64,000 nt of DNA from a virus (IMGVR_UViG_3300045988_054045); one strand, 5' to 3'; shown: positions 8,286-42,852, numbered from the stretch's first letter. Translations and numbers: made by a program. Notes: generated by a model not told the origin, from the letters alone.

Positions 8286-8296
8286 AATTGTTTGAA

Positions 8297-9617: not shown

Positions 9618-9618
9618 C

Positions 9619-12080: not shown

Positions 12081-12112
12081 TTTGGTGATGCAGCTTATAA
12101 TGCTTATATTTG
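12081..12112 (+). promoter_or_regulatory. Bacteroidota-type promoter (-33 TTTG, -7 TAnnTTTG)
   Basis: TTTG lies at 12081-12084 and TATATTTG at 12105-12112, with a 20-nt spacer. The site sits in the only sizeable intergenic gap of the + strand (12004-12151), 40 nt upstream of the 12152 ATG. Confidence 0.5.
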
Positions 12113-12151: not shown

Positions 12152-12466
12152 ATGAAAATCGAAGAGAAATTTAGAAAATTCCAGCAAGGTGGTGCTGCAC
12201 CTCAACCTGGTGCTGAACCAGCAGGCGGAGCACCAGCAGAAGGAGCACCTGCTGAGGGTGGTGCGCCTGCTGAAGGGGGACAAGACCCAATGGCACAGAT
12301 TCTACAAGTAGCTGCACAAGCAGTTCAGACTCAGAATTGTGAGGCTGCAATGGCTGTATGTCAAGCTCTAATGCAAATCGCTCAAGGTGGTGCTGCTCAA
12401 GAACAAGCTCCTCAAGAGGAACCAACTTTTGCAAGAAAAGGTGCTAGACTAGTAAGAGTAAGATAA
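12152..12466 (+). CDS. Low-complexity Ala/Pro/Gly/Glu/Gln-rich small protein (104 aa); candidate virion cargo or internal protein
   Basis: The N-terminus is MKIEEKFRKFQQGG. Degenerate GAPAEG-type repeats follow, then a Gln/Ala-rich helix-like part and a basic tail ARKGARLVRVR. The gene has its own promoter and terminator. It is locally GC-rich in an AT-rich genome. Confidence 0.6.
   Translation: MKIEEKFRKFQQGGAAPQPGAEPAGGAPAEGAPAEGGAPAEGGQDPMAQILQVAAQAVQTQNCEAAMAVCQALMQIAQGGAAQEQAPQEEPTFARKGARLVRVR
12188..12289 (+). repeat. Degenerate in-frame tandem repeat encoding (G)GAPAEG-like units
   Basis: The peptide is GGAAPQPGAEPAGGAPAEGAPAEGGAPAEGGQDP. The DNA shows repeated gcacc(a/t)gc(a/t)ga(a/g)gg units. 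Confidence 0.6.
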
Positions 12467-12485
12467 TTAGTCAACAAGGTAAGAA

Positions 12486-12516
12486 GGGGCGTATATTAAT
12501 TATATGCTCCTTTTTT
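12486..12516 (+). terminator. Intrinsic terminator after the 104-aa gene
   Basis: GGGGCGTATA (12486-12495) pairs with TATATGCTCC (12501-12510) to form a 10-bp stem that includes two G-U pairs, with loop TTAAT. TTTTTT follows at 12511-12516. Confidence 0.55.
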
Positions 12517-12530
12517 ATTATACATAGTAT

Positions 12531-15500
12531 ATGTCACAAGTAATAAGAAAGTACAACTCTGGAGGTCAAACTGACAAACCTAAGCTTCTGAGTATAAAAG
12601 GGCTAGGCGACTTTAACCAAGATGACCTAATAAAGAGAGGTTATAGAGATGTGGATGAATATACCTCATCTAAGGGGTTAAAGAATGCTGCTGCAGCTGA
12701 TTTTAGGAATGCTGTGCAATATATGCTTGAGGGAATGAACAATGGCACTATAACTATGGATGCTATGGGCAACTTTCAAGATGCAACGGGTCAAAAATCA
12801 AGTACTGGTGAGTTAGATAGAAAGAAATTCTTGGGTATAAAAACAGGGGTTAAGAATACTGAGAATAATGCCTATGGATTAGCTGCTGATTATCTATACA
12901 ACATCATTAAAGGAGCACCGCAGTATAAGCAGCCTGAGGTAAAGGCTGAGAAATTTAACACCAATGACTATCTAACTAAGGAGATTTCAAAAAGATGGTA
13001 TGGAGGAAACAATATAGATTTTGGCAACTGGTTTAAAAACAGGTCAGAGAAAGACCGTAATGCACTCATAGCTGACATCTTTAATAGTGCGGATTATAAT
13101 AAATTGTATCAAGAGCACGATTGGACCGATACTGGTATCAATAGCGTAGAAGACTTAATGGCTCGTGGAAGGGCATTTGGCTCTGCTATTTCTAATAATA
13201 AACTAGACAATGACGATTACAACACATTTGCCACACTAGGTGGTAGTGATTTAGATAAGTTCTTGAGGGAAGCCTCAGTAGAGACTGAGTCTACTCCAGA
13301 ACAGAGTAAAATGAAGGCGTGGGAAGCTGAGGCAGAAGCAGCTGGAGCAACCACTCCTGAAGCTAAGGCTGCATTCATTCAAAGAAAGCAGCGAGAAGAA
13401 GCTGACAGAAATGAAGCTATTATTAAGGCTAACCAACAAGAAATATACGAGAGGGAGAGAAATAAATTCTTCAACGATTATGCTACTCGGAATCCATTTA
13501 AGGAATCCATTCAGTCAGGATATGTCCCTAGCTCTGTATCATATAAACCAGAAGACTATGATAAACCAATAAAGGACTTCTATAATAATAATATTGACCA
13601 ATACTTAAACGATAACCTATCTAGAGATTGGTTTAGAGCTGGTAATACCCAACATATTGCCAATCACATGGATTATCTAATTAATCACTTGAAGATGAGT
13701 CTTCCAGACGCAGGTGATGGGTTTGTGGCAATTCCTTCAACGTTTGATTATAATAACTACACTACAATGGTATATAATCCAACTACTAGACAATATAGAG
13801 AATCATCTATGCTAGTGAATGATGCCTTAAGACGTCTTGCAAATGCTCATTATGATAGTACTCGTACATCTAAGAAGGAAAATGGTGGTGTACTCTATAT
13901 GCAGTTTGGAGGAACGTATAGTGCTGGGGCTAATTACAGTAGCTACCAACAACAGAGAGCACAAGAGAAGAAAACCAAAGAAGAGGAAACCGTTAGACAG
14001 AAAGCTGAATCTAAAGGAAGGACTACTGAGGAGCAGAAGGTAGCTGATAGAAAGCCTGGAAGCATCACTAGTGGTGACTGGACTGGGGCTGATTATACTA
14101 GACTAGCATCTATAGTTGCTGATATTGGTTCTTTGGGTGCAGCATATGTGCCTGTCTATGGTACTGCTGCTTCAGCAGTGTTGGGTGTAGGTAGTTCTCT
14201 AGCCAATTATGGAGCGGATGTGTCTGAGAATGGATTTAAATGGGGTGACTTAGGTAGCTTGGCTATGAACTTAGGCTTAGATACAGTGGGTCTGATTCCA
14301 GGATTGGGAACAGCCGCGAAGGGTAGTAAGATGCTTAAAACAGCTGTTAAGTATATACCTAAAACATTGTCCCTATTAGCTGCATATAACTACACGGGTC
14401 CAGCCATAGAATCCATGAAAAAGGCTATGACACCAGGTGCTGACTTAACAGTGGATGACTGGAGAAATATTGCAGAAGGTTTTAAGATGGTGTTACAAGG
14501 AGGTAAGGGTGTCAAGAGAACTGTTCAAGCTCGTAATCTCAAAAAAGACCTAGCAACAGGTAATAAAGTGCTTACTACGCTAGGTGGTAAAGAAGTATCT
14601 GTAACCCCAGCTCAGTTATCTGAGATACGTTCTCATAGAAAATTGGAAGACCAAGAAGCAGCACTGCAACTGTTACTGAAAGATGATAATTTGAGACTAG
14701 CTGGGGACTTAAATAAAAGGTGGTTTAACCCTTCTCGCTATCTTCCTGATTCCAATATCAGAAATGAGTATGATTTTAACAAGAAAGTGAAGAAGAGAAC
14801 CTCTCAAGGATGGATAGAAGTACCTAGAGTCTATAGTAACTCTGATAAATACATCGCTGCTACTATGCAGCAGAACGTTGCTAAGATTCCAGGTGTTGAT
14901 GAGCTATCAATGAAGTATAATGATTGGAAGTACAGGGTAGAAAAGAGTCCAAAAAGTAATAAGGGTAAAAAGCCAAGCTCACAAAAGGAAGCTCCTAAGG
15001 AAATGCTAGCTTTACCAGCCCCAGGTCAAACACATAGAGTATTTCACATGGGTTCTGGACAACCTAAGGTACCTCAAGATGTAACAAATCCATCTAACCT
15101 TAGTAAACCAGGAACATATCAGGATAGAGCTGTCCATGTAGGAGGTACTCCAGTTGAGTCTCCAAATGCTAATGCAGTAAGGACAGTTAGGACTATAAAT
15201 TCTATTTTAGAGCCATTCGTTCCTAAGACTACAAACTTGCCAGCTGTCATCCCTGCATCTAGAAATGCTAACAAGGTAGTTGCTTCACAAACTATACAAC
15301 CTTCACAGAGGTTAGACCAGTTTATTGAAGGGCAAATACCAGGAGGAAGGCAGTTTGGTAAACAAAGAGCTAAAACTGAGAGGGAATATAGAGATGTATT
15401 CCATCCTGTAGCAGAACGTGAGTATAATGCAGTTTGGGATGAAGCAGTTAGAAATAGGAAGGACTTTGGATATGAAGAAGTCTTCCCTAAGAGAAGTCCT

Positions 15501-17249
15501 TATGCTCCTCCTACTCCTACAGAGGTATATGTAGTACCAGAAGGTGCTATGAAAGACCCTAATGCAAGGTATCTTTGGGAACTTATAAACAAGAAACCTA
15601 ATACTAACCATACTAAGAGGGCAGACTTACCTCATAAGAAGTCAAATAAAAAGAAGAAAACTTCTAAAGATGATAGAGTTACTAAGAAAGCAGAGGGCGG
15701 ATTAATTCAATTCTTACAAGGTGGTGATACAGTAGGAAGAATCAAGGCTAAAGATATGTCTAACTGGAATAGAGCATCTGCTCTGGCTAACTATGATTGG
15801 GTAGCTGATATTGATAGGTGGAAAGCTTCACATACTGGACCAGATGATTGGCGTTCTTCTTATATGCTCTCTTTTAATGGCGGAGAAGATATATATGACC
15901 AATTAACTGATAAGACTGGAGATTACTTCGGTGGTAAGTATAATTACTCAGTACAAGACCCATTAGCTAAACAAAGACAAATTACCTTTAGAGGAACTAA
16001 TCAAGGCTTTGATGACCTAATTAGAAATGGTATCGTAGGCTATGGTACTACAGAAGGTACAACTGGATTTGACGTGTATGCTGGTGATAGAACTGGTAAC
16101 AGAACGCTTGCCCGTGGAATGACTCCCGAAGACGTTGCTCGCTTTAATAAGCAATTAGCAACCAGAGGAATGGAGTTATATGACAAGGGTAATGGAACCT
16201 ATCGACTAAGAGCACTTCAGGAACCGACTCAACACCTAGACGAGGTTGTAGTTACAGCTCCTAAAGTAGCAGCTAGTGATACAACTAACCCATCTGGTAT
16301 AAAGCGTGTAACAAGTACTCCTAAGAAGAAGCTTAAACTTAATGTAGCTCCAGAGGAAGTATTAGCTTTAGGTAGAATGGTTGGTGGTTTGGCAGCTAAC
16401 AACAGGGCAGCTAAAGTATATAAGGAAGGACTAAAGCCAACCTTATTAGATACATTTGAGAATACTGTTCCACTTCAAGGTAATTTCCAAGCTAAGACCA
16501 ATGCAGAGCAACAAGCAGGTAATTTAGAATCTGTAGCTGCAAGACCTAGAACTTCTGATGCTTCACTACAGTTAGCTGGAGAGTTAGAGGCTAGTGATAG
16601 AGCAGGACAAGCTAGATTCCAAGGTGGTCTTCAAGATGCTGAAATGTTCTATAAAACTAGGATGTTAGGACAACAAGAATCTGATGCTGCTAAGGCAAGA
16701 AGAGTAGAGGTTGCTAACAGGAATAGAGCTTCAATGAATGCTATAGATGCAGCTAAGAAGCAGATTGATGCTGGAAGAATAACTGCTAATTATCAGCAAG
16801 TTATTGCTCCTTATTTAGCTGGTGTAGAGAATAGATTCAGACAAGCTAGAGGTATGAAGAATCAGTTAGCTTTAGAGTCTTATCTAAACAGAGTTGGTTC
16901 AGAATACGATACTGAATTAGCTAAGATTGGAGAGACTTACAAGAATGACCCAGTAGGGGCACAAAGAGAAATATCTAAATTACGCTCCAAGTATCAGTCA
17001 GATGCACTGAAAGAAAGAACATCACTGATAGATACTCCCTGGTTAGTTAGATTTAGTGGAAAGGGTTCTAAGCTGTCCTATGCTGAAAAAGCTATGCTTC
17101 AAAGGGCTAAGGATTTCAATAAGAGACTATCAGATGATAATAAACAATTTCATAAAGATATAATGGAATCTAAGAGGGAGCATAACAAGATGATTGCAAA
17201 TATGTCTGCTCTCACTGCTGCACTTATAAAGAAAGGAATGCAACTATGA
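12531..17249 (+). CDS. Giant protein (1572 aa); candidate ejected or internal virion (cargo) protein with a Gly-zipper hydrophobic region and a coiled-coil-like C-terminal part
   Basis: Uninterrupted 4.7-kb ORF with N-terminus MSQVIRKYNSGG. Internal KKENGGVLYMQFGG (aa 448-461) and KKAEGGLIQFLQGG (aa 1052-1065) are present. A Gly/Ala-rich hydrophobic stretch, ASIVADIGSLGAAYVPVYGTAASAVLGVGS...GLIPGLGTAAKG, is also present. No enzymatic motif recognised. Confidence 0.6.
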   Translation: MSQVIRKYNSGGQTDKPKLLSIKGLGDFNQDDLIKRGYRDVDEYTSSKGLKNAAAADFRNAVQYMLEGMNNGTITMDAMGNFQDATGQKSSTGELDRKKFLGIKTGVKNTENNAYGLAADYLYNIIKGAPQYKQPEVKAEKFNTNDYLTKEISKRWYGGNNIDFGNWFKNRSEKDRNALIADIFNSADYNKLYQEHDWTDTGINSVEDLMARGRAFGSAISNNKLDNDDYNTFATLGGSDLDKFLREASVETESTPEQSKMKAWEAEAEAAGATTPEAKAAFIQRKQREEADRNEAIIKANQQEIYERERNKFFNDYATRNPFKESIQSGYVPSSVSYKPEDYDKPIKDFYNNNIDQYLNDNLSRDWFRAGNTQHIANHMDYLINHLKMSLPDAGDGFVAIPSTFDYNNYTTMVYNPTTRQYRESSMLVNDALRRLANAHYDSTRTSKKENGGVLYMQFGGTYSAGANYSSYQQQRAQEKKTKEEETVRQKAESKGRTTEEQKVADRKPGSITSGDWTGADYTRLASIVADIGSLGAAYVPVYGTAASAVLGVGSSLANYGADVSENGFKWGDLGSLAMNLGLDTVGLIPGLGTAAKGSKMLKTAVKYIPKTLSLLAAYNYTGPAIESMKKAMTPGADLTVDDWRNIAEGFKMVLQGGKGVKRTVQARNLKKDLATGNKVLTTLGGKEVSVTPAQLSEIRSHRKLEDQEAALQLLLKDDNLRLAGDLNKRWFNPSRYLPDSNIRNEYDFNKKVKKRTSQGWIEVPRVYSNSDKYIAATMQQNVAKIPGVDELSMKYNDWKYRVEKSPKSNKGKKPSSQKEAPKEMLALPAPGQTHRVFHMGSGQPKVPQDVTNPSNLSKPGTYQDRAVHVGGTPVESPNANAVRTVRTINSILEPFVPKTTNLPAVIPASRNANKVVASQTIQPSQRLDQFIEGQIPGGRQFGKQRAKTEREYRDVFHPVAEREYNAVWDEAVRNRKDFGYEEVFPKRSPYAPPTPTEVYVVPEGAMKDPNARYLWELINKKPNTNHTKRADLPHKKSNKKKKTSKDDRVTKKAEGGLIQFLQGGDTVGRIKAKDMSNWNRASALANYDWVADIDRWKASHTGPDDWRSSYMLSFNGGEDIYDQLTDKTGDYFGGKYNYSVQDPLAKQRQITFRGTNQGFDDLIRNGIVGYGTTEGTTGFDVYAGDRTGNRTLARGMTPEDVARFNKQLATRGMELYDKGNGTYRLRALQEPTQHLDEVVVTAPKVAASDTTNPSGIKRVTSTPKKKLKLNVAPEEVLALGRMVGGLAANNRAAKVYKEGLKPTLLDTFENTVPLQGNFQAKTNAEQQAGNLESVAARPRTSDASLQLAGELEASDRAGQARFQGGLQDAEMFYKTRMLGQQESDAAKARRVEVANRNRASMNAIDAAKKQIDAGRITANYQQVIAPYLAGVENRFRQARGMKNQLALESYLNRVGSEYDTELAKIGETYKNDPVGAQREISKLRSKYQSDALKERTSLIDTPWLVRFSGKGSKLSYAEKAMLQRAKDFNKRLSDDNKQFHKDIMESKREHNKMIANMSALTAALIKKGMQL

Positions 17250-19084: not shown

Positions 19085-19095
19085 AATCTAGTAAT

Positions 19096-27168: not shown

Positions 27169-27170
27169 TC

Positions 27171-33100: not shown

Positions 33101-36100
33101 TATAACTTATGTGAATAAGCTATACTCAGAAAGTATTAGTAAGTTGAGAATTAATCCTAGAGCTAAGATAGAAGACCCAAGTATTGATGCAATCAGAGAT
33201 TCTGCTGCTGAATTACATACGTCTTTTATTAAATCTTTGGATGTTCTAGCTGCTCGTATCCCTGCTCAGTCTATGCAATCATTTATGCCTATGAGAGTAG
33301 TGGGATTTGACGAGACTGACACAAACTCCGCCTACGTTAATTACTTCCAGTTTTGGCTACAGGGTTCTGACTTGGATATTGATAAAGTTTCCTTGTTAGG
33401 ATATTCATTTGACAGGACAGGTAAGTATGTTGGATGGAGTCCATACTTTAATTTGAGTTCTCAGAGTGCATTAGTGGAATCTGAGAAGCTGCCATTCCCT
33501 ACAAATAAAGAGTTAGAGTTGGTTGAGACTGATGATACAGCATTGACTAATTGGGCTTATGATTTTGTAGGTTCAGGGAAATTGTTTAACTTTAGTGGTT
33601 CAAAAGTTCTATTCCTGCCAGAATATGACTTGGACAATTCTTTAGGTTCAATACAATCTTTATCGAACTTCTTAAGAATGATTAAGAAAAACGGCGGTAA
33701 ATTGTATATCCCTAAAGGTTCTAGGCTTCCTTTTAACGAAATGAAGGAGTTGATTGACCGACACAATTTATACGTAAGGAACTCTAGTAACCCAGAGGAT
33801 ATGATTAAGAACTTCATATCTTCTTATATGTTCAAGATTAGTGATAATCCTATTAATTTAATGCAATCACAATCATCTATTGATGATGCTGTGGCATTGT
33901 TAAAGGATATAGCTAAAGGGTCAACAGAAGGTCAGAGAACTCTACAATTTACTCCAGGTAATGTAGTAAATAAGTATGAGTCTATGTATGATTTTCAATC
34001 TGGTAAGAAGAACGTTGGTATAGTTGCATCTGCTATTAAAGTGTATGATGGTCTAACCCATTATTATAACACTACACTAGGTAGCGGTGATGTAATGAAG
34101 CAATCTGGACTATTATTCAACAGAGTTGTTTGTGGTAAAACTTTTAGACTGTTAGCTAACTCATATACTAGTAATCTAGAATCCGTAAGAAATCCCGAAG
34201 TATTAGATGCGTTACAGAACGTAGATAATGACACTGATGCTAAGTTAGTATTCTCTGCATTAATGTCTGCTGCAACTGATAATGCTAAAGACCCGATATT
34301 GGCTAAAATCAATGCTGGTCCTAACATGATGGGATTATATACTTATGGTACAGCTATTGGTATTCCTTTAAATGATTTAGCTGGTACTATGATGTCTAAG
34401 ACTGCTCGTATCCTTTCTAAGCTTATGGACTCTAATGTATTTAATAGGAAAGATGGTATGTCAATTACCAGTGCTATTAAGTATATCGAAAATGGTCCTA
34501 GCATTGGGGAATTAGACCCTGAATTCATCTCTATACTAAAGAAGGAGTTTGGGTCTGGCACAGATGCATCTGACTTCGTAATTGGTAAGATGTTACAATA
34601 TAGACTCTCTGACTTATCTAAAGGTCACGAATTGATTGATAGCTTAAGAAAGAGAATAAGGTCTATGGAGGCGTCTATGAACAAGGTTTCAATGTATAAG
34701 TTTCTAGAAGAGTTATCTGATTATATTAGATTCGTCTATATCATAAATAATGATGTAATCACTAACTCTGAAGGGGTACAATACAGAGCCATTGATTCGA
34801 TAAAACAATTAGTTCAGGGTGCATCTGAGATGGGTAGGTTAAGGAGTATATATGCTCTTAATCAAGGTCTTCCTAACAAAGTAGAGGATAAATTTAAGTT
34901 TATCGATAAATTTGAAAGTATCTTCGAGGATAGAATAAGGGAGATTTCAGGTGAAGAGAAGGAATCAACTGTAATGGTTAATGGAATGGTTATGAAAGTT
35001 TCTGACGTTATCTCAAAGCTAAGGAATCTAACTAACGATGAAAGTAATCCATACAGAATTTCTTTCAGCAGATTCATGTCTGACGAAGAGTATAGAAATA
35101 CCTTAATTGCTCTATATGGAGGATTAAAGCATTCATTCAATGTGTTAGATGCAGCTTGGTCAGTACCTCACTACAGGGGCTACTTAGAAACTTTCCATAT
35201 GGATATGGAAGGTAATTACATGATTATGTCTAAGTACAGAATGATGAGGGATTTAGGTCCTAGAATCATCAAAGATGGTAGCTTCTATAGCAGTAAGGAA
35301 AGGTCTAATGTTTATAAGAAGCTTCAATCATTCTGTGATATGACTCTTAGAAACACTTGGATGAAAACTTCTGAAAAGGTAATTACAGTCCCAGCAGGTG
35401 TAACTATTATGAATAGTATTGGTAATACCTTTACTACTCAAGGTGATACCCCTATTATGTTAGGAACGAGGTGGGGTAATGAGTCATTTAAGATGTGGAT
35501 GGATTCTGTGGTGATTCCCGAATTAAAGGATATAGAACCTAATGAATTTATTCAATCTCTAAGTCCTATTAGATTAGATAGAACACTTAGTGGTAACTCT
35601 GCATTTGTGTATTCTTTACCAACTAATATGTTGCCTAAGTCTACATCAGAGATAGAGCGTTTAAACAGATATAAGAGAGCCTTTAATCAATTACAAGGTG
35701 CTCCTACATATCAAGGTTATCCACTAACTGATTTATTCTTCTATTATAATCTGATAAACTTTAACAACACTGTCTCTCAAAGTTCTTTGACTACAATCTT
35801 TGAGGACATCATTAGAACAAAGTCATCCCCACTGGTTGAGGAATTTCATAAATTCACATCAGTGTTAGATTCTAACTCAGAGTTAGTTGAGGGGGTAGAT
35901 TTCTCTTATGAAGAAGCTCAAAAGTGGTGTGCCCCTATTGAGGATACTAATTATTCTACTAGTTATTATGTCAGAGACTATAACAACGCAGATATGAAGT
36001 ATCATCTATTTGTAAGAAAATCTAACTCTGCTGACGTTGGTGAGGTAGATGGAGATTTTGACTATGATTCCGATTATATGGATTGGGTTGGAGATGATTA

Positions 36101-36464
36101 TGATAATGGAGACATGGGTGGACGTCAATATGGTCCTAACCTAGAGGATTATACAAAGGTTATTGAAAATACCAACTATACTAATCCCTGGGATACAGCT
36201 GACATATATAATGACTACAACATAAGAATTGACTCAAATTCTGTAATTAATCTTGATGCTGACAAGAAGCTAAAATCTATAAGCTATAAGGGTAAAACCT
36301 ATAGTAAGGAGGTTCTAGTGAGTCTAGCTAAATCACTAGGTGGCTCTGAATCAGATTTAGATATACCTTATGTAACCAGAGTTGTTGATGGCATAAACGT
36401 GAAAGCTATTGATGGCTTACAGTATTCTGCAATCATAACTCAACTATTAGACAATCCTTGTTAA
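27171..36464 (+). CDS. Giant protein (3097 aa); crAss-type virion-packaged single-polypeptide RNA polymerase candidate (two-barrel / DPBB class)
   Basis: AARIPAQSMQSFMPMRVVGF...FWLQGSDLDIDKV contains the RxPxxxxxS element followed by DLDID (aa 2067-2071, nt 33369-33383). This mirrors the NRAPTLH...NADFDGD arrangement of the beta-prime and QDE-1 catalytic double-psi beta-barrel. Size and genomic context fit crAss-like vRNAP genes. Confidence 0.65.
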   Translation: MGKCKFNKNDSNLDLQDVLQDTLEEIWEEKDEFSRKAMFINSLKEIGEGYDITSLSDLADFIDAFVMEIAPALHDVVPSNMTTYLSGNSSNIDDTAEENPTKLDALDDPEGNADAKQRIRGFIVTNYGTATEIASAMEASVVDNIVKCFLVDREAGKVIKTEHEINEALRNYQETLLQDVVAYLKDVYSKLPSKDAQSALEKLSNLTMWKDGVYLNAVGELNAVGERFLHHSHFTADDLRRIYSRNRIIDKKFIKAYNSLVILNHFDDLLSSKLGKVLKINENFPKYSPEDRYSLTGTGANNSRNWGDKEKDVNMNDHVSDVTKLLVETTPVYTWGSSTPVADKKVKLDAFNYIISKIKGLANSPDIHNPALTFDGMFFLKYPQFEHLRSSIGGKSFYTLLSSASTGNVLENYHALFELLSDESFFNSNYELLRGFKSIEKNLVYSLRQGIFSSDTHSLFGIYKNNILDTNYYSFICQLVATASPLDFVQYRINEDGEIVRATLRDNLNRQLRNQLERSISSALSITAPTQYEPKVAKYNPRYEEDKVTDAKEGLRTVSVFRFQIPELNISVQFNPKAKRSNAFSISRDGKPLTTFNGKEDWEKALPFFKEFLYLDFVSDGPLVESYLALKTKNGNIQYESAISDLLQLSTSIFFNSYFSHNLVPKETSTQEFRRRQEEVFGAENLTSIKRGSKDIGILLPSYVPVMEDVAAAYAMTTDAYVSGIARDGEGRALSGVAMSMLGTNYRNQWVNQCMNPGSATNAFSLLNSSFLHRGMVVSREYKGKIGSKKHIDFNMSESFYTAFVSNYLCNIVGNTDAAFLPSVISDKSSLIHMVENLKSTSGLDKPYANLTKDETIAIINKELGDCYVKIINSITSEWEQLNSALRSIDTSLVFNNPVQYPLLASKKVIPVFNPMTNFAEVNAVYGNDSRKVLEEVLRVYQNIVRGKDLEIKDEVSFQGSKTLSFNRTLISLTNRFNPEYFTRAGLNVEEVFGKLTNSEDFWRIKEVELLTDLLDNDFMIETTDERGNALTTPEVAYLAKNKDWIKFSTKRVILAKYTNFGKTFDITKWSDLYSIGGYTENGITYNWGTPGFSFSKFLEIRGGELQLHPDLARFNVMDYLLSQEYVLSTVGTHANHPAKKATSSPNDLVEEAARYIAQHKRNVSYTAAKQVMIQGLINGILPEYTIAVIEDDTAPTYNPMGDHDEHGVKQYDGSTFVSPETMYLENNSLGGAKVGVDKKPFIHFYKEGSATGGIIKTAGFALTNFTMRNSKFYQRMVKKMWGKTWEFEGSLFNDNVLVDFQGNLIPYEDVYYKGTDGKFYMINSITYVPEDGTYMIIKSEVEPDGTIVRQLPAEITPKPGEGPRVTASGTTLYPVTTNFGLYQMFGGWNSYSKSEDGLIPSEVSVRNVVKAVNGVGVKVSDSVVSQSDVVQPLKWASIQYVVTAGAIKQGAANVNLKHAYFDDNPYLTMKFKTTDIGIQLDAEHNADESTLSIMTQVVNALSSRGYTSEQAGEVYEAMFALTEAGINDYVEGFRQYMDDSDPTKFKDAIISTIVKSIQNSTSRDGNLMQAVMDTLISDTKAGKLVKYKNVEGVIPFSDPSIFNGLCSAISSTLTKAAIRLQFNGSLAVLNPSHKIWKLYGDRMYDSFNNDEEIQKLQELYNSKPITNLSELRLGRHYTITVGDTTSTEFIETPQQYWDLRSRLTQSELMGIPFSIVENITAGRDLASYNFTFKDVDGNLYNMWDLDVVKNLYSTTDSKERILLRRELQNALGAVSNGRLDSVSINGAIVQVDKSSLQTQPFELIMPKIYASRFGLKRGDSLATIKNDDTFFLKRMLSNWESKVNDADFDIELKRLNGKHVYLVDKRVYKDTHLTPVEIETRWDGAKLYRVNSSGEKLHRLSDESDRIYTDVNGNEVIVTNNTQFYIDSFNYHTIKVSNSAAMSKDISKIIQPILSSKSKVASRFAKYIGKNDPTDIITYVNKLYSESISKLRINPRAKIEDPSIDAIRDSAAELHTSFIKSLDVLAARIPAQSMQSFMPMRVVGFDETDTNSAYVNYFQFWLQGSDLDIDKVSLLGYSFDRTGKYVGWSPYFNLSSQSALVESEKLPFPTNKELELVETDDTALTNWAYDFVGSGKLFNFSGSKVLFLPEYDLDNSLGSIQSLSNFLRMIKKNGGKLYIPKGSRLPFNEMKELIDRHNLYVRNSSNPEDMIKNFISSYMFKISDNPINLMQSQSSIDDAVALLKDIAKGSTEGQRTLQFTPGNVVNKYESMYDFQSGKKNVGIVASAIKVYDGLTHYYNTTLGSGDVMKQSGLLFNRVVCGKTFRLLANSYTSNLESVRNPEVLDALQNVDNDTDAKLVFSALMSAATDNAKDPILAKINAGPNMMGLYTYGTAIGIPLNDLAGTMMSKTARILSKLMDSNVFNRKDGMSITSAIKYIENGPSIGELDPEFISILKKEFGSGTDASDFVIGKMLQYRLSDLSKGHELIDSLRKRIRSMEASMNKVSMYKFLEELSDYIRFVYIINNDVITNSEGVQYRAIDSIKQLVQGASEMGRLRSIYALNQGLPNKVEDKFKFIDKFESIFEDRIREISGEEKESTVMVNGMVMKVSDVISKLRNLTNDESNPYRISFSRFMSDEEYRNTLIALYGGLKHSFNVLDAAWSVPHYRGYLETFHMDMEGNYMIMSKYRMMRDLGPRIIKDGSFYSSKERSNVYKKLQSFCDMTLRNTWMKTSEKVITVPAGVTIMNSIGNTFTTQGDTPIMLGTRWGNESFKMWMDSVVIPELKDIEPNEFIQSLSPIRLDRTLSGNSAFVYSLPTNMLPKSTSEIERLNRYKRAFNQLQGAPTYQGYPLTDLFFYYNLINFNNTVSQSSLTTIFEDIIRTKSSPLVEEFHKFTSVLDSNSELVEGVDFSYEEAQKWCAPIEDTNYSTSYYVRDYNNADMKYHLFVRKSNSADVGEVDGDFDYDSDYMDWVGDDYDNGDMGGRQYGPNLEDYTKVIENTNYTNPWDTADIYNDYNIRIDSNSVINLDADKKLKSISYKGKTYSKEVLVSLAKSLGGSESDLDIPYVTRVVDGINVKAIDGLQYSAIITQLLDNPC

Positions 36465-36465
36465 T

Positions 36466-37551
36466 ATGGCAGTATGTCTTAATAAAAATTCAGTAGAGTA
36501 CCAGACATTGTTGAAGATGTCTGGTCTCTCTGAATTTAAATTTAATGCTTTTACATCTACATTTGTAGATAAATTTGGTAGGTATCCAGAACTCGATGAG
36601 ATACCTGGGGCTGACTCTAGACCTTATCTGAATAACTCTTTGTCAGTCAAAACAATAGATGATACGAGTTTCGTAAAGAATGATAAGATATTTTCTCAAA
36701 CTGGCACAACAGATGTCAAAGAGGCTAATATTAGGATAAATAACACGTATCGAGACTTGGAGGTTAAGCTAACCCCTTCTAGTGAGGTGTCTACGATACA
36801 AGTTAGGAAACGCCCAAATAAATGGGACAATGTATATGAGGGGGGAATAATTATTGATGACTCCACATCTTCCTCTAGGAATGTTGGAGTTTTTAATAGT
36901 ATATTAGAGAAATTAGCAAACCTCTATGGTATTAATTTTATTAGCATTACTAACGGGGAACTATCCTCAGAACAATGGAAGGGAGTCGTAGATGATGCTA
37001 AAACAACTAACGCTTTCGTCTACAATGGTAATATATACATTAATATAGATAATTCTAGCATTGATGCTCCATTGCACGAAATGTTACACCTATTCTTGGG
37101 TTCAGTTAGGTACAGTGACCCTCAACTATATTTTTCAATGGTGGAGGCTATGAATGAATTACCTAACAAAGCACTATTGGCTAGAAATTATAAGGACAGA
37201 ACAGATTCTGACATAAATGAGGAATTGTTGGTGTTGGAGTTTTCAAAATATGTAACTGGACAAGATAGTATTATTAGTAAGTTGCCAGTTAATGTGCTAC
37301 ATAAAACATTCTACAATATGGGTAGAGTGTTAGACTCTATCTTATTTGGAGAGCAGAGTATAGCTACTATGGACACAAAGAGTCTATTCAACTCCTCTTT
37401 AGTAAAACTGTCTGAATATCTAGGTTCTGCACTAACTAATAATCAATATTCAGGAACCTTTAATGTTAAGTCAGCTGAGGTTCACAGAGTATTAGCTAAC
37501 GTTAAATCAGATTTAATGAAGAATAAAGACCTAAAAGAATTTTGTGGATAA
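36466..37551 (+). CDS. Putative zincin-type metallopeptidase (361 aa)
   Basis: There is a single HExxH, in APLHEMLHLFLGS (H204-H208, nt 37075-37089), in a hydrophobic helix context. The gene lies 1 nt after the RNAP gene and overlaps the next gene (TAATG). Confidence 0.4.
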   Translation: MAVCLNKNSVEYQTLLKMSGLSEFKFNAFTSTFVDKFGRYPELDEIPGADSRPYLNNSLSVKTIDDTSFVKNDKIFSQTGTTDVKEANIRINNTYRDLEVKLTPSSEVSTIQVRKRPNKWDNVYEGGIIIDDSTSSSRNVGVFNSILEKLANLYGINFISITNGELSSEQWKGVVDDAKTTNAFVYNGNIYINIDNSSIDAPLHEMLHLFLGSVRYSDPQLYFSMVEAMNELPNKALLARNYKDRTDSDINEELLVLEFSKYVTGQDSIISKLPVNVLHKTFYNMGRVLDSILFGEQSIATMDTKSLFNSSLVKLSEYLGSALTNNQYSGTFNVKSAEVHRVLANVKSDLMKNKDLKEFCG

Positions 37552-40500
37552 TGGGATGCATTTATGATTACAAAGGACATATCTTCCAATCTGAATTAGA
37601 ATTAGATGATTTCTTACTTGAAAGGGGACATTTAGTATCTAAGTATGGGGACATTGTGTTTAGTAAAAGCAATAGGGCTATCCAGACTTATGACTCCGTA
37701 ATGAACTTAAAGATGGATACTGAGGCTCTTAAAGCAAGTAAGATAATCTCTGAGGTTGAAGATGGAAAAAATGATATTGAAAACATTAATGTATCTGGAA
37801 ATGGATATATTGGTGTGAATAAGTTTCTACAAGGTCTTAGAAACTTGGAGGGGGACTTATTATTCCCAGAATTTAGACCTGAAAATTATTGGAAGGAGAT
37901 TAAGCCAAGATGGGCAGGAGGCAAGTTTGACAAAGAGGAGGCTGATGCAATATTTGGTGAGGGAGTAGAAACTAGACCTATTGTAAGTGATGAGGAGTTT
38001 GCTAGAGCAAGAGAGGTTATTGAAAACAAATGGAAAGCTCAGGGTAAAATTGGTACTGAACTGCATAAGGCAATACAAAAGTATTTCAGTGAATCAAAGA
38101 GTGGTAGGAATATAAGGGAATCAGATGATAACTTCCTAATCAATACGTATTTCCCATCTATATTAGACACTAAGCTAGTTCCAAGCAAGGTTATTGCAGA
38201 AACCGTCAAATACTGTAGAGACCTAGAGAAATCATTACAGAGAGAATTTGGTGAAGACTTGATATACCTTCCAGAAGTTGCAGTTTCTGGAACTACTTCT
38301 CAAATAGGAGAATCTGGAAATCCCAATAAGCTATTAGGAGTTATTGACTTACTAGTAATTGATGGAAGGGGAAATGCCCACATTATTGACTACAAGACAT
38401 CACCCAGACCATATGTAGGAACTGCTTCTGAAGCTGGGTATGATTCTGCTAAAATCTTGACCTTCAAATACCAGCTAGGTGTGTATGAGCGTCTATTAAG
38501 AAAATATGGAATAAACACTAGCGGTTCTAGGTTGTTTGTAGCCCCCATTCAGCTGTCAGATTTTAAGAGAGAAGGTGACGATTGGGTATACAGTGGTATA
38601 AAAGAATATTCAGGTCATGTAGAAGACTTGACTCAAGATATTAAGACAAATATTAATATACAAGAGAATATTGACGAATTCCTTCCAGCACCGTTTGTTA
38701 CTAAAGCTACAACGGAAAACCTACTCCAAACTGTAACCAGTGTAATGTCAAAGTGGTTCCCTAAATATGATAGCGTTCCAGGAGAAATCACGGATGATAT
38801 GGTAGCTGAAACTATAAAAGAAGGGAAGGGTGATAAGCCTAACCCTGAAACAGGTAAGTATGTATACTCTCCAAAAGGCAATGGGTATCCTCTTAAGGGA
38901 GATACATATGAGGAGCTATTTGTAAAGGTAAAAAGAAGGATGAATAGTATAGCCAACAATAAGATAAACACCACTCAGGTTATTAAGGAGGGTTTAATAA
39001 AGGCTATAGAGGATGAGAATCCGTACTATGAGTTTACAAAAGCACAAATTCCAGACAATCCTAGTGGAGTTAATGGATGGTTTCAAAGAAGAATGTCTAG
39101 ATATTGTAACCGTAATTGGGAAGTGGTCGACTGTGAACCTGCAGAATATCTAGGGTGCATACTACTCAGAAATAAATTTACTAATCAAATAGATGTAGTG
39201 AAAATTAGTACATCAATGCTAAAAAGGTCTAGAGAGTTAGTAAAGGGAAGACATGGTCTTACTGGAGCATTCGAAAGTGATATTATATCGCAGAATAAAC
39301 CTAACTCTTTGATGATGGAAAGTGTTAATGGTAATATAGAACTAATGGAAGCTATGTTAGTGCTTAATAATTTACCTAGTCTGTTTGAGGAGAACGCTAT
39401 AGTAGGAGAAGTTAGTGTATATAACCCATTTAGAGAGGAGGGTATATCTGCAGACAATAAACAGCTGTTATACTGCTTCAATGAGTTGGACAAGCTGTCT
39501 CCTATTGGCGTAAATAACATGAAGGGAAGAAACGCTGCTGTTAAGATGGCGAATAGGTATGATATATTCTATAACAGGTTTAGGGAGATTATATCTAATG
39601 TTAAGGATGATACTAAGATAAACAAGAAGTGGAGAAAGTTTACTGAATCTACCAGTGCTCTAGATGCTTGCATTGGAGACCCAACCCAGCTTAGACTAGA
39701 GCTTCTTAACCTTAGAAAAGAGTTTTTGGAAGCATTTCCTAACGTTAATGATACTAGACCTAACGATGATGTAATAGGTATGCCTCACGTCCAAGTATAC
39801 AGGATGCTAGAAATGGCTATTGGTGAAATAGACGGTCTTGACTTCAGACAGCAGCTTAGTGACCATGATAAGTGGTTAGAATCAATTTATGTATGGAAAG
39901 CTGGTATGGAAGGTACATATCTTGATAATCCTGGTAATATGAAGAGTCCTATCCTAAATAAGTTGACCTCTTTAGTAACTGTGGCTTATCAGAATATCAG
40001 GGATACCGTAAATAGGTCTCAGGGAGAAATCAGGAATTTAGTCAATGAATTAAAGAAGGACCAGAACTTCACCTATTTAAAGGAGAGGACAATAGGTAAT
40101 CAGGCTACTCTATACAGAGATATGATAGTATATACAGATGATGGTGATATACTACTAAAGAATCCAGACGACCCAACAACTGGGCTATCTGAGGCACAGA
40201 GGAAATTTCTGAAGTATTTTCTTAAAACGGTTAATTCCAACAGATTTAAGAATATGACTGAGGAAGAATTAGAGGAACTAAGGTTGTCAGGCGATGTTAG
40301 GTATTACAGGCTACCTCTAGCTGCTGGTAATGCTACATCTATTGCCTCAAGTAAGGGACTATTATCTGCAATAAAAGACAAGCTCCAGGATTGGAATCCA
40401 AAGAAGGCTGTAGAAAGGGCTAAAACAAAGGTAGAGGGCTTCTTAGACCCAACTGACGTTAAAATTGAGAAAGTCCGTAAGGGTGAGCTATGGGAGATGA

Positions 40501-42251
40501 CCAACTCATTTGATATTGGTGAAAAGGGTTCAGAGATACGATTAAGTCTAATAGAGGACAGGAAGCCAGAGTTCTTTGAAGCAAACCTTGAAACCCTGTT
40601 ACTTAAACATATTACTGCATACTCAGCTAAGGAACACTTAGATGAAATCTTCCCATCACTTCAAGCTCTAGCTATCCATTTAAGTGACATGGGTACTATT
40701 CTGAATGATAAGTTTGAAGATGATTTAAAGTATTTAAGTGACTACGTTAGAAATAAGATATTTAATCAATCTCTAATTTCTGACGACCGTAAACCTTTAG
40801 CGGCAATAACTGGAGGATTGATGGGATTTGCATCAAAGATTGCATTAGCATTCTCTCCAGTTCAAATGTATCAGCATTTAGATGGAATCTGGAAGGATAT
40901 ATCATTGGTAATAAGAAAACCAGATGGAGGTTTAGCTTTTACTAAGGAGAATATGACTAAGGCTTATAAGTATGCTATAGCTGATGCTATTCATTATGGT
41001 AATACCAAATCCATGTCAGAGTTATTAAATGAACAATATGGTCTTAATGATATGGACATGAATACTTATGCTGATAAGATAAAGTCAGACCAAGCAGGTA
41101 TATGGAACTTTTGGGCTTCAGCATTTAGATTTGCATCAAGACCTGACTTCTATAACAGAATGACTATATTCGGAGCACAAATGAGGGGTGACGGATGTTG
41201 GGAAGCACACTCTGTGGTGAATGGTAAGTTAGTTTATGACTGGAAGAAGGATAGTAGATTTAGTGCATATGCTAATGGTAATACGTCTAGTCCCGATTAC
41301 AAAAAGCAAGAAGCACTGTACTACACTATGGCACACCAGTTAGTTAAGGAGCACACTAGGAATGCAGATGGCTCATTATTCAGAGTGGGTGACGCTCTAC
41401 CAAAGGCATACACCGTTCAACAATCGGAGAGCCATAAGGCTTTAGCTGACTCTATATATGGATATTATTCTCATGAGAAGAAATCTATGTTTCAAAGTAC
41501 TCTAATTGGAGGTCTATTCTTCCAAATGTGCACATATTGGTCTTCTAAGAAGAATCAATATCTAGCCCCTGAAGGTATAAAACTACAGGGCAGACTAGTC
41601 CACTACGAAGAGAATGGTCAAAAGTATTATCACAAATTAGATGATAAGGGACAGCTTACAGATGAAGCAACTACTGAAGATACAGGATTTCCATTTTATA
41701 AATGGGAAGGACGATTTGAGGAAGGTATCTTATTGACTTTCACTAAGGTTTTAAATGACTTAGTAGTAGGTTCTTATAAAAAGGGTAGTATAAGAGAGGG
41801 ATGGAAACTAATGACTAATGACATCTGGAATAATGAAGATGAGAATCTTAGAAGGGCGTATAGGTCTAATTTACGTCAATTGTTCTATGACTTGTTCATG
41901 TTATTATTCGTTGGGGCAGTAGTCAGTGGCTCTTTGGCAGAATTTGTTAAGGATGATATTAAGGAGAGAGGTAATGATACCATGAATGATGCTGTAATAA
42001 ACACAACTCTATCTCTTGGTAGTAAGATACTTACCAACTCTGCTTATGACTTTAACTTCCTTGATGCTATTGCTGGACGAGGAACACAATGGACTCCATT
42101 CTCATTTGAAACACTTAACAGAACAGTAGATACATTCTCAAGTGTAATATCAGGAGATAAGTCTTTGTATCAGGGTTTAATTAATACTGTGGCAGCTACT
42201 AGAGCTACTAAGCCAATCTGGGATTATATAGACCCAACTAAGGAAGAATAG
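37551..42251 (+). CDS. Giant protein (1566 aa from ATG 37551) with an N-terminal RecB/Cas4-type PD-(D/E)xK nuclease domain
   Basis: All four RecB-family motifs are present. GTELHKAIQKY fits the G...H motif. GVIDLLVID contains motif II Asp (D266 or D271). AHIIDYKTS is the (D/E)xK motif (D280, K282). KYQLGVYERLL is QxxxY (Q308, Y312). The track start at 37542 is TTG, and ATG 37551 overlaps the upstream TAA. The C-terminal part has predicted TM-like segments (LFYDLFMLLFVGAVVSGSL). Confidence 0.7.
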   Translation: MGCIYDYKGHIFQSELELDDFLLERGHLVSKYGDIVFSKSNRAIQTYDSVMNLKMDTEALKASKIISEVEDGKNDIENINVSGNGYIGVNKFLQGLRNLEGDLLFPEFRPENYWKEIKPRWAGGKFDKEEADAIFGEGVETRPIVSDEEFARAREVIENKWKAQGKIGTELHKAIQKYFSESKSGRNIRESDDNFLINTYFPSILDTKLVPSKVIAETVKYCRDLEKSLQREFGEDLIYLPEVAVSGTTSQIGESGNPNKLLGVIDLLVIDGRGNAHIIDYKTSPRPYVGTASEAGYDSAKILTFKYQLGVYERLLRKYGINTSGSRLFVAPIQLSDFKREGDDWVYSGIKEYSGHVEDLTQDIKTNINIQENIDEFLPAPFVTKATTENLLQTVTSVMSKWFPKYDSVPGEITDDMVAETIKEGKGDKPNPETGKYVYSPKGNGYPLKGDTYEELFVKVKRRMNSIANNKINTTQVIKEGLIKAIEDENPYYEFTKAQIPDNPSGVNGWFQRRMSRYCNRNWEVVDCEPAEYLGCILLRNKFTNQIDVVKISTSMLKRSRELVKGRHGLTGAFESDIISQNKPNSLMMESVNGNIELMEAMLVLNNLPSLFEENAIVGEVSVYNPFREEGISADNKQLLYCFNELDKLSPIGVNNMKGRNAAVKMANRYDIFYNRFREIISNVKDDTKINKKWRKFTESTSALDACIGDPTQLRLELLNLRKEFLEAFPNVNDTRPNDDVIGMPHVQVYRMLEMAIGEIDGLDFRQQLSDHDKWLESIYVWKAGMEGTYLDNPGNMKSPILNKLTSLVTVAYQNIRDTVNRSQGEIRNLVNELKKDQNFTYLKERTIGNQATLYRDMIVYTDDGDILLKNPDDPTTGLSEAQRKFLKYFLKTVNSNRFKNMTEEELEELRLSGDVRYYRLPLAAGNATSIASSKGLLSAIKDKLQDWNPKKAVERAKTKVEGFLDPTDVKIEKVRKGELWEMTNSFDIGEKGSEIRLSLIEDRKPEFFEANLETLLLKHITAYSAKEHLDEIFPSLQALAIHLSDMGTILNDKFEDDLKYLSDYVRNKIFNQSLISDDRKPLAAITGGLMGFASKIALAFSPVQMYQHLDGIWKDISLVIRKPDGGLAFTKENMTKAYKYAIADAIHYGNTKSMSELLNEQYGLNDMDMNTYADKIKSDQAGIWNFWASAFRFASRPDFYNRMTIFGAQMRGDGCWEAHSVVNGKLVYDWKKDSRFSAYANGNTSSPDYKKQEALYYTMAHQLVKEHTRNADGSLFRVGDALPKAYTVQQSESHKALADSIYGYYSHEKKSMFQSTLIGGLFFQMCTYWSSKKNQYLAPEGIKLQGRLVHYEENGQKYYHKLDDKGQLTDEATTEDTGFPFYKWEGRFEEGILLTFTKVLNDLVVGSYKKGSIREGWKLMTNDIWNNEDENLRRAYRSNLRQLFYDLFMLLFVGAVVSGSLAEFVKDDIKERGNDTMNDAVINTTLSLGSKILTNSAYDFNFLDAIAGRGTQWTPFSFETLNRTVDTFSSVISGDKSLYQGLINTVAATRATKPIWDYIDPTKEE

Positions 42252-42255
42252 GATA

Positions 42256-42798: not shown

Positions 42799-42804
42799 AC
42801 AATT

Positions 42805-42851
42805 AGGGCGATACTGGTGATTAATTTCACTGGTATCGCCCTTATTTTTTT
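42805..42851. terminator. Bidirectional intrinsic terminator at the convergence point of the + and - modules
   Basis: AGGGCGATACTGGTG (42805-42819) pairs with CACTGGTATCGCCCT (42828-42842) to form a 15-bp stem. It contains 2 G-U pairs in the + RNA, which become a 2x2 internal loop in the - RNA. TATTTTTTTT follows on the + strand. The - strand has an A-tract upstream and TTGTTTAT downstream. Confidence 0.7.
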
Positions 42852-42852
42852 C

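Follow-up and report, generated by a model that had tools for sequence, protein, structure and literature searches.

A giant-gene block encoding a virion RNA polymerase homolog, inverted and exchanged as a module, in a crAss-like phage genome

What is encoded by a block of giant genes that fills 30 kb of a phage genome and is transcribed toward the virion genes rather than together with them, and how far does it go beyond the transcription blocks that are known from crAss-like phages? We have examined this question for positions 12,152–42,251 of IMGVR_UViG_3300045988_054045, from which a stretch of 64,000 nucleotides (nt), hereafter referred to as the window, was analysed. The block consists of seven + strand open reading frames (ORFs), designated A to G with their lengths added where useful (Table 1), which amount to 10,002 amino acids (aa) in total and are spaced by −4 to +64 nt (i.e., from a 4-nt overlap up to a gap of 64 nt). 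An initial annotation of this DNA had described seven consecutive and nearly abutting ORFs, and all of them are present on the + strand as it had placed them. The mechanical ORF of G begins with a TTG at 37542, three codons before the ATG, and is 1569 aa long; the start at the ATG at 37551 gives the annotated 1566 aa and yields the conserved N-terminus MGC. Overall, the block is very probably the known crAss transcription/cargo block in a large, Zeta-type form, and its identification as an RNA polymerase (RNAP)/cargo block is borne out by E, a homolog of the crAss virion RNAP.

The assignment of this phage to the crAss-like phages is upheld by two genes in the same genome, viz. a homolog of the crAss muzzle protein gene and a crAss major capsid protein (MCP) gene at 57,699–59,120 on the − strand (Pfam Crass_capsid 1.2e-14, 54 bits against a cut-off of 27), whose product is 22–24% identical to annotated Crassvirales MCPs in tblastn comparisons. 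E belongs to a family of 3000–4000-aa proteins with 37 close homologs, and an exhaustive search of representatives with a 317-position profile recovered 1268 clusters at E value ≤1e-3. Within this family, the segment R-I-P-x-Q...Q-G-S-D-x-D-I-D-K...W-S-P (aa 2029–2091) is invariant. No Pfam, PHROG or PDB sequence match was obtained for E3097 itself, and its relationship was followed stepwise. The family profile meets gp50 of ΦcrAss001 exactly at LSGSDFDVDK (hhalign, E value 0.0029); local E profiles searched against a seven-sequence database of the ΦcrAss001 block proteins identify gp50 at 4e-7 and 1e-6 and the other proteins at 0.003 or worse; and 22 representatives of the family (27 alignments) match gp50 at about aa 1400–1830 in BLASTP searches, down to 1.5e-8, and no other block protein. 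In turn, residues 967–1626 of gp50 match PDB 6VR4, the phi14:2 enzyme entered as "DNA-dependent RNA polymerase", at 6e-32. Because this chain leads from the family profile to gp50 and from gp50 to 6VR4, E is, by sequence, a divergent member of the crAss virion RNAP family (phi14:2 gp66/ΦcrAss001 gp50), and the DxDxD polymerase reported in the initial annotation is genuine. The phi14:2 enzyme (6VR4) has reportedly been characterized structurally, in work of Drobysheva et al. from 2021. A conserved, Lys/Arg-rich region of E at aa 1140–1260 could represent the first of the two barrels expected in such an enzyme.

The protein encoded immediately upstream of the polymerase, D2690, contains a real superfamily 1 (SF1) helicase core, for which helicase activity is predicted. 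Pfam matches to AAA_19 (33.8–34.5 bits, cut-off 25.1) and AAA_30 (31.9–33.2 bits, cut-off 27) cover aa 1416–1585, and thus just the first RecA domain of the helicase. The family comprises 1163 homologs at E value ≤1e-3, many of them with the same precomputed Pfam domains, and in an alignment of 20 of its sequences, with identities down to 34%, the residues E1421-G-x-P-G-S-G-K1428-T, D1547-E1548, G1575-D-F-D-Q1579, Q1729-G-x-E1732 and Y1754-T-x-x-x-R1759 are all invariant. The full set of motifs is hence present in its proper order, together with Pfam scores above the curated cut-offs, in agreement with what had been proposed for this protein. The most conserved part of D, and of the block as a whole, is its N-terminal region of 820 aa (window 19,096–21,555), which contains dozens of invariant residues (including Y-Y-E218, D-F-F-D-S-D253 and E-G-x-E-E-x-x-E-E562) and has no detectable homologs of known function. 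Searches of PDB sequences with phmmer and with profiles (E, D and the E, F and D families) gave nothing meaningful; the best matches, viz. CDK4, a retron reverse transcriptase and FtsY, were rejected, the match to FtsY being via the P-loop only.

Predicted nuclease and peptidase domains are found in the two proteins that follow the polymerase. G matches Pfam PDDEXK_1 at 33.8–36.3 bits (cut-off 22) and carries the complete signature of the RecB family (motif II, motif III and the QxxxY helix), so that the RecB-type nuclease assigned to it earlier is confirmed at the level of the domain. In MT835470-type variants of G the acidic residue of motif III is replaced by Leu, and nuclease activity may therefore not be universal. 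A profile of the G family finds the same signature in ΦcrAss001 gp47 at aa 1703–1867 (GEVDIL...IYDVKTS...QLSAYKNL; E value 2e-7 in a search of 22 sequences). F361 is best read as a zincin-like peptidase, its activity being predicted from conserved residues and a structural model. An alignment of 40 family members shows no variation at H204, E205, H208, E252, E253 and E258, and these residues are likewise constant in cassette variants of 549–804 aa that are 27–35% identical and share the C-terminal 200 aa only. F361 has no Pfam match and no PDB sequence match. Its AlphaFold2 (AF2) model, with a confidence score (pLDDT) of 88, shows a beta-hairpin (strands 183–193), a helix with the HExxH motif (203–210) and a second long helix (247–263). 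When compared with the predicted viral structures of BFVD, this model matches large uncharacterised phage proteins (E values 1e-5 to 7e-4), an SprT-like protein (probability 0.99) and "large polyvalent protein associated domain" proteins (0.97), and a Foldseek comparison with PDB gave low-probability kinase-like and EssB matches only. An F homolog of 51% identity in NCBI nr carries the name DUF4157, which we take to be a zincin family. Longer variants of F (P0424 and P0425, 546–555 aa; L019 3733–5382) contain an inserted match to Pfam ART-PolyVal (ADP-ribosyltransferase of polyvalent proteins), which at 1.6e-5 is below the cut-off, covers the full model length and lies 5' of the conserved zincin domain.

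Table 1. Coordinates of the genes and other features of the window that are discussed in the text (L numbers are our handles for related loci).
Feature	Position	Strand	Characteristics
Isochorismatase/nicotinamidase-like gene	5132-5800	+	NAD-related run upstream of the block
NAPRTase	6018-7184	+	2e-53
NAD synthase	7341-8285	+	2e-36
Cytidylyltransferase-like (NMN/NaMN adenylyltransferase-type) gene	8542-9102	+	NAD-related run
NUDIX	9586-10155	+	NAD-related run
Promoter candidate	12081-12112	+	Bacteroidetes-type: -33 TTTG, N20 spacer, -7 TATATTTG; 40 nt before the ATG of A104
A104	12152-12466	+	104 aa; small, Ala/Gln/Gly/Pro-rich; N-terminal KFQQGG; heads the block
B1572	12531-17249	+	1572 aa; giant, zero Cys; N-terminal KYNSGG
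Hypervariable central cassette of B	13262-15076	+	aa 244-848, 1.8 kb; replaced without DNA similarity (e.g., L046)
Gly/Ala-rich, mildly hydrophobic region of B	14088-14330	+	aa 520-600
C612	17246-19084	+	612 aa; zero Cys; N-terminal KLQQGGG
D2690	19096-27168	+	2690 aa; conserved N-terminal 820 aa, central SF1 core, C-P-x-x-I-K-I-K-[LF] tail
SF1 helicase core of D	23293-24405	+	aa ~1400-1770; motifs I EGxPGSGKT, II IDE, III GDFDQS, V QGxE, VI YTxxxR
Facing-Cys junctions	D-E 27144-27182, E-F 36453-36477, F-G 37537-37562	+	also in L019, L043, L044, L004, L085, L086, L087
E3097	27171-36464	+	3097 aa; crAss-type virion RNA polymerase homolog; Cys4 and Cys3097 invariant
E catalytic region	33225-33443	+	aa 2019-2091: R-I-P-x-Q...Q-G-S-D2067-L-D2069-I-D2071-K...W-S-P
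F361	36466-37551	+	361 aa; stand-alone candidate zincin-like metallopeptidase; Cys only at 4 and 360
HEMLH motif of F	37075-37089	+	H204, E205, H208; third-ligand candidates E252, E253, E258
G	37551-42251	+	1566 aa from ATG; Cys3, no C-terminal Cys, RecB-type domain, long conserved region
RecB-like PD-(D/E)XK domain of G	38028-38651	+	aa 160-367: G-V-I-D266-L-L...I-I-D280-Y-K282-T-S...Y-Q308-L-x-x-Y312
Hydrophobic segment of G	41892-41948	+	LFMLLFVGAVVSGSLAEFV, Kyte-Doolittle 2.1, ~aa 1448-1466, near the C-terminus; only strongly hydrophobic segment of the block
H180	42256-42798	+	deoxynucleoside monophosphate kinase; Pfam DNMK 9.4e-21, phrog_139 3e-54
Hairpin	42805-42842		16 bp, G+C-rich, between the convergent + and - arrays; T run on the + strand
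crAss muzzle protein homolog	44665-49356	-	Pfam crAss_MUZ 3.5e-28; marks the end of the tail module

The initial annotation had further held that the block, if packaged, would represent far more ejected enzymology than has been documented. This is not supported, since the same domain types are present in the blocks of reference crassviruses and the products of the corresponding blocks are found in virions. Mass spectrometry of virions of ΦcrAss001 (Kehishuvirus primarius) has detected gp45, gp46, gp47, gp49 and gp50, the cargo space being estimated at 5.5 MDa (Bayfield et al. 2023, PMC10172136), and all six of the phi14:2 proteins gp076–gp081 are annotated as structural proteins from tandem mass spectrometry (MS/MS). 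Each of the reference blocks examined has an HExxH motif in its typical context, and gp45 of p-crAssphage is annotated as "putative RNAP associated protein fused to zincin protease". In cr50_1 (Suoliviridae), the 4774-aa gp059 combines an RNAP region with an SF1 helicase domain (AAA_30 5e-21, PIF1 and Viral_helicase1) and is named "DNA helicase" in RefSeq. A PDDEXK domain in a large protein of the transcription block is reported for some crAss-like phages by Yutin 2021 (PMC7886860), and polyvalent proteins, i.e., packaged multi-enzyme proteins built on an RNAP and zincin hub, as well as a zincin domain in the N4 virion RNAP (vRNAP), have been described by Iyer 2017 (PMC5512222). In size, the block of the window has 10,002 aa and that of MT835470 10,718 aa; the former is about 35% larger in residues than the blocks of four reference crassviruses (7,004–7,741 aa), the genome being about 85% larger.

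Comparison with individual systems shows where the block of the window agrees with them and where it departs. It shares with ΦcrAss001 a crAss-type virion with a muzzle, two smaller and three giant block proteins, a polymerase homologous around the DxDxD motif (gp50), the RecB-type signature of G in a giant protein that also has an HExxH motif (gp47), and the logic of its terminal Cys residues; gp49 and gp50 likewise belong to the replication strand and are transcribed toward the virion genes. However, the ΦcrAss001 block is smaller (7,478 aa), its gp47, gp49 and gp50 have no Pfam helicase match, its nuclease is located in gp47 rather than in the last block protein, and in the window the entire block is inverted, small proteins included; packaging has been shown for ΦcrAss001 and is predicted for the window. 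In the block of Cellulophaga phage phi14:2 (gp076–gp081), too, a DxDxD RNAP of giant size lies between other giant proteins, gp076 and gp081 contain HExxH motifs, and terminal Cys residues face each other, but the similarity to E is only transitive, via ΦcrAss001 gp50, the block is co-directional with the structural genes, and gp076 and gp078 have no helicase or PDDEXK Pfam matches. The gp059–gp060 pair of cr50_1 resembles the window in having an SF1 (Pif1/RecD-like) helicase domain within the RNAP block, an HExxH motif and terminal Cys residues, but there the helicase is C-terminal to the RNAP region in one polypeptide, whereas in the window it is part of the protein encoded upstream of the RNAP. 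A profile of the D helicase alone matched nothing in the reference crassvirus blocks, not even the helicase domain of cr50_1, and the two domains may thus have been acquired independently. In its domain repertoire, the block fits the concept of the polyvalent proteins and the N4 vRNAP, i.e., of large proteins that are packaged and injected and that unite an RNAP with zincin, ADP-ribosyltransferase, helicase-type ATPase and nuclease domains (PMC5512222); the N4 enzyme is, however, a T7-like single-subunit polymerase and E is predicted to be of the double-psi beta-barrel (DPBB)/DxDxD type, and the domains of the window are spread over separate polypeptides with one recognisable enzymatic domain each.

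The remaining proteins of the block, A, B and C, precede the giant proteins with recognisable domains. B1572 and C612 are, by their position, candidate analogues of ΦcrAss001 cargo protein 1 (gp45) and cargo protein 2 (gp46), respectively. A104 is 77–100% identical in relatives even where B to G are only ~30% identical, and it is 70% identical to its counterpart in MT835470, which also heads the block; the length of B in relatives ranges from 1443 to 1761 aa, and its gene is fragmented in contigs L062 and L063. The N-termini of A, B and C have a motif in common, [KR]-[FYL]-x-x-G-G, that is also present in their MT835470 orthologs and resembles the sequence IFDTGGQ near the N-terminus of gp45; this motif may be a docking or targeting signal of small cargo proteins. 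The membrane-active modules that had been attributed to the block are a weak claim, for which we found a mild stretch in B and one clearly hydrophobic segment in G. In a hydropathy scan the peaks of B reach 1.38 and 1.24, compared with 1.73 for the transmembrane (TM) segment of gp45, and aa 520–600 of B, which resemble the predicted TM helix of gp45 in character, could insert into a membrane.

The giant proteins are connected by a feature of another kind, viz. Cys residues at their termini that face each other across the gene junctions. D ends in ...C-P-I-T-I-K-I-K-L, in which C2682 is invariant, and 117 of 120 members of its family have a Cys within the last 12 residues. E starts with MGKC and ends with ...NPC, both of these Cys being invariant, and among the full-length representatives of the RNAP family a Cys is found within the first 6 residues in 161 of 166 and within the last 4 in 157 of 166. 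F starts with MAVC and ends with ...FCG, and these invariant residues are its sole two Cys; G starts with an invariant MGC and lacks a C-terminal Cys; and B and C have no Cys at all. The pattern is kept in divergent swapped cassettes and extends to the reference phages. In ΦcrAss001, gp47 ends in ...RCNS, gp50 starts with MSKRC and has a near-terminal Cys (...KICGANTLYEL), and gp49 starts with MAKKC; in p-crAssphage, gp45 ends in ...FSCM and gp44 starts with MSC; in phi14:2, gp078 ends in ...NTIC, gp077 runs from MAC to ...QECK and gp076 starts with MSC; and in cr50_1, gp059 ends in ...KECE and gp060 starts with MQC. Facing terminal Cys residues are thus present in all five crassvirus lineages examined, which represent four groups. 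Cys makes up 0.1–0.2% of the residues in those giant proteins of the reference phages that have facing Cys and 0.4–0.6% in E and G. The pattern suggests the correspondences D with gp47, E with gp50 and G with gp49. Translational coupling cannot explain it, because the ΦcrAss001 partners lie on opposite strands. Inter-subunit disulfides have been documented elsewhere in the ΦcrAss001 virion, and the crassvirus literature that we examined does not mention terminal Cys of the block proteins. It is possible, and we put it forward only tentatively, that the facing Cys form head-to-tail disulfide or shared-metal links which chain the RNAP and its partners linearly in the virion. Such a chain would thread through the tail in the order of the genes and would be released by reduction in the host cytoplasm, and the gene fusions found at the same junctions (cr50_1 gp059, p-crAssphage gp44) would be its covalent equivalent.

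The block behaves as an exchangeable module, while A and the deoxynucleoside monophosphate (dNMP) kinase gene H180 stay with the flanks. An example is provided by IMGVR_UViG_3300045988_047051 (L056 + L019), which is 97.3% identical in DNA to window 42,254–52,795, the first of these positions being the exact junction of G and the dNMP kinase gene, and ~86% identical up to 12,562, i.e., 30 nt into B. Between 12,562 and 42,254 the two genomes have almost no DNA similarity; their C, D, E, F and G proteins are 27–39% and their B proteins 44–70% identical, and the block of the other genome has an extra gene of 333 aa. The same swap pattern is seen in contigs of another sample, the swapped loci include L020/L081 and L021/L059, and other genomes are mosaic, e.g., L008, whose E, F and G are 98, 90 and 69% identical, respectively. 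Exchange also occurs on a smaller scale: the flanks of the central cassette of B are 97–98% identical in DNA and 96–98% identical in protein, and aa 417–657 within it are only 29% identical. Since the block is swapped between genomes, part of the "extreme evolutionary rate" of crAss RNAPs may be due to module swapping.

Transcription of the block from a single host-type promoter, as had been suggested, is supported by a Bacteroidetes-type consensus that is not sigma-70-like and is conserved in relatives. The window has 3 copies of the pattern TTTG-N20-TATATTTG where 1.56 would be expected, so that there is no window-wide enrichment, and the copy ahead of A occupies the only sizeable gap in front of the block; both of its elements are kept in 13 related contigs despite diverged DNA further upstream. 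They are absent 5' of the A gene in MT835470, which has another gene layout, and a sigma-70 scan near the start of the block found nothing above chance. At the other end, the block had been thought to terminate at a bidirectional terminator facing the tail genes. A hairpin facing the tail genes does exist, but the block A to G does not itself reach it, since H180, the eighth co-directional gene and the last before the hairpin, starts 4 nt past G; moreover, the hairpin scores as an intrinsic terminator on the + strand only, the T tract of the − strand side being weaker. H180 is the terminal gene of the replication module in MT835470-type relatives, as indicated by synteny, and it belongs outside the cargo block. 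The inverted block is plausibly transcribed as one operon of 30.7 kb, from ~12.1 kb to the hairpin at 42.8 kb. Cumulative GC skew has its maximum at 42,000, with a skew of ~+0.19 before 42 kb and ~−0.14 after it, and the change of sign coincides exactly with the point of convergence of the two gene arrays. As the skew tracks the direction of transcription across the inverted block, the inversion is suggested not to be recent.

The layout of the window, in which the block lies on the strand opposite to the tail genes and is separated from them by the dNMP kinase gene and the hairpin, is not restricted to a single assembly. Its 3' junction (E-F-G, dNMP kinase, hairpin, tail genes) is present in at least 35 IMG/VR contigs and its 5' junction (YqeY-like gene, A, B, C, D) in at least 36, the contigs being 87–190 kb in length. 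In MT835470, MT835492, L043 and L044, the block follows the tail genes on the virion strand, running from A and B through to G, and converges on the dNMP kinase gene at the end of the replication array. The order regarded as canonical, with the block co-directional with the virion genes, is found in p-crAssphage, phi14:2 and cr50_1 and in part in ΦcrAss001, whose layout is partly inverted (gp49 and gp50 being on the replication strand), but not in the window. We infer that the canonical layout is ancestral and that of the window derived. A single simple inversion does not suffice to convert the former into the latter, given that the dNMP kinase gene ends up on the other side of the block but on its former strand. 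A search of the block flanks found no inverted repeats pairing the two boundaries, for which reason an ongoing invertible switch was rejected and the rearrangement is taken as an evolutionary event. In the sub-lineage of the window, the whole block would have been excised from an ancestral site downstream of the muzzle/tail genes and re-inserted, inverted, between the nucleotide/NAD-metabolism genes and the dNMP kinase gene, with its own conserved host-type promoter. Inverted and with a promoter of its own, this layout is a genuine variant of one lineage, and there is partial precedent for it: besides the case of ΦcrAss001, inversion of a gene block between close Zeta relatives is reported by Babkin 2025 (PMC12386605). 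Within the text, as distinct from the figures, that was available of two studies of the Zeta group (PMC7886860, PMC12386605), neither this layout with a host-type promoter of its own nor module swapping nor terminal Cys residues are described.

Could the unusual orientation or the enzymatic signatures be spurious? A mis-joined or flipped contig would account for a convergent block, and the block is indeed oriented the other way in the two genomes of GenBank that are closest; but both junctions recur in 35–36 contigs that derive from more than one sample, they are gene-tight, and the 5' junction carries a conserved promoter. An assembly artefact is accordingly extremely improbable, and the convergence on the virion module noted in the initial annotation is real. 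The suspicion that the helicase, nuclease and protease signatures are chance matches in structural or repeat proteins could draw on the absence of PDB sequence matches, on the lack of a Pfam match for F361 and on PHROGs, in which no family was found for any of the seven block proteins. However, PHROGs was equally empty for the capsid and most of the tail proteins tested, only the 1563-aa muzzle homolog being matched (phrog_15100, virion structural protein). The Pfam matches of D and G exceed curated cut-offs, complete and ordered motif sets are invariant in families that have diverged to 27–36% identity, and the confident model of F361 matches SprT-like and polyvalent-protein domains. Chance is thereby effectively refuted as an explanation, and homology searches show conserved domains in D, E, F and G, whose motifs are genuine.

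It is less straightforward to decide which of the products are cargo. Our preferred explanation takes D, F and G as RNAP-associated giant proteins with accessory domains of the polyvalent-protein type and A, B and C as positional counterparts of small cargo or ejectosome proteins. Several results weigh against it. The assignment of B, C and D as cargo rests on gene order, size and terminal motifs: B1572 and C612 have no match to crAss_CARG1 (PF25725) or crAss_CARGO2 (PF25712) even at E value ≤1, whereas gp45 and gp46 themselves match these families at 2e-66 and 6e-219, and in searches of ΦcrAss001 gp44–gp51 the hidden Markov models (HMMs) of the B and C families do not detect gp45 or gp46, while that of the D family has no significant match, gp47 included. 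For E, a second DPBB domain was not demonstrated, and the E-family profile found nothing among PDB sequences; an AF2 model of aa 1100–2299, built from a 9-sequence alignment, had a pLDDT of 51 (below 50 in the candidate barrel regions), and its Foldseek search of PDB returned Sm-like proteins only, at E values >0.3, which are meaningless. Lastly, a position in the replication-strand array, with the dNMP kinase gene 4 nt on, fits non-structural middle genes as well. These points lend some weight to a scheme in which only the RNAP, perhaps together with A, B and C, is packaged, and D, F and G are middle-phase enzymes of the infected cell, the helicase and nuclease forming, for example, a recombination, end-processing or anti-defence machine. 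An SF1 helicase plus a RecB nuclease is a classic recombination pairing. Such a role would explain the move of the block into the replication-strand array, where it is co-directional with nucleotide/NAD genes and under a host-type promoter, and D, F and G, the nuclease domain of G excepted, have no detectable similarity to experimentally packaged proteins. We nevertheless consider this scheme unlikely. Relatives with the canonical layout place the same genes after the tail genes on the virion strand; ΦcrAss001 gp47, which carries both the nuclease signature and an HExxH motif, is a virion protein, as are all six phi14:2 block products by MS/MS; the helicase domain and the RNAP region of cr50_1 are part of the same polypeptide; and the facing terminal Cys join D, F and G to the RNAP, E, as members of a single series.

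Under the preferred explanation, by analogy with the reference phages, most or all of the seven products are probably packaged and ejected ahead of the DNA. They would be late products that are loaded into the capsid and tail; B and C would contribute to a conduit through the envelope; E would transcribe the early genes; and the accessory domains would have nucleic acid ends or the cargo itself as their substrates, autoprocessing being the favoured role for the zincin of F. As the block has moved and been inverted as a unit together with a host-type promoter, its expression is independent of read-through from the tail operon.

The relatives and the neighbouring genes of the block agree with an affiliation to the Zeta group. 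The nearest GenBank records are MT835470 and MT835492, which are both unannotated human-gut genomes. In MT835470 (record 41,941–43,041), the RNAP gene is split directly after the DxDxD motif by a 234-aa ORF (MAKRS...LLIGLLLGD), which from its LLGD motif is read as a LAGLIDADG endonuclease and presumably marks a group I intron that encodes a homing endonuclease; the E gene of the window, unlike this ortholog, is uninterrupted. In the standard code, the ORFs of the MT835492 block (record 63,300–97,000, L005–L007) do not exceed about 150 aa, although its proteins are found by tblastn; a reassignment of stop codons in late genes, which has been reported for phages of the Zeta group, would fit this. 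Intron-encoded LAGLIDADG endonucleases in the transcription gene block are shown by Yutin 2021 (PMC7886860), and Zeta-group genomes span 145–192 kb (PMC7886860, PMC12386605); the IMG/VR contigs related to the window reach about 185–190 kb. Likenesses to the Zeta group as described there include the human gut as habitat, a PDDEXK domain in a large transcription-block protein, a LAGLIDADG-read ORF and apparent recoding in relatives, and in its size, habitat, introns and recoding the phage appears Zeta-like. The + strand genes 5' of the block are genes of nucleotide and NAD metabolism. Those at 5132–10,155 look, from their sequences, like a complete Preiss-Handler set for NAD+ salvage, which possibly counters NAD-depleting host defences.

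For the most part these results confirm what is known of crassviruses, viz. a block of giant genes with virion RNAP, zincin, helicase and nuclease domains, and what they add is the movable, inverted layout of the block, its wholesale exchange and the terminal Cys residues. The block is exchanged among genomes that are 97% identical in the DNA of their virion modules, with breakpoints at its edges, and it may be asked how early promoters are kept matched to a swapped polymerase. The terminal Cys provide a directly testable hypothesis on the ordering, for ejection, of a cargo of several megadaltons, a question that the structural work on ΦcrAss001 has left open, and, if true, they would represent a general and apparently undescribed mechanism for ordered protein ejection in Crassvirales.

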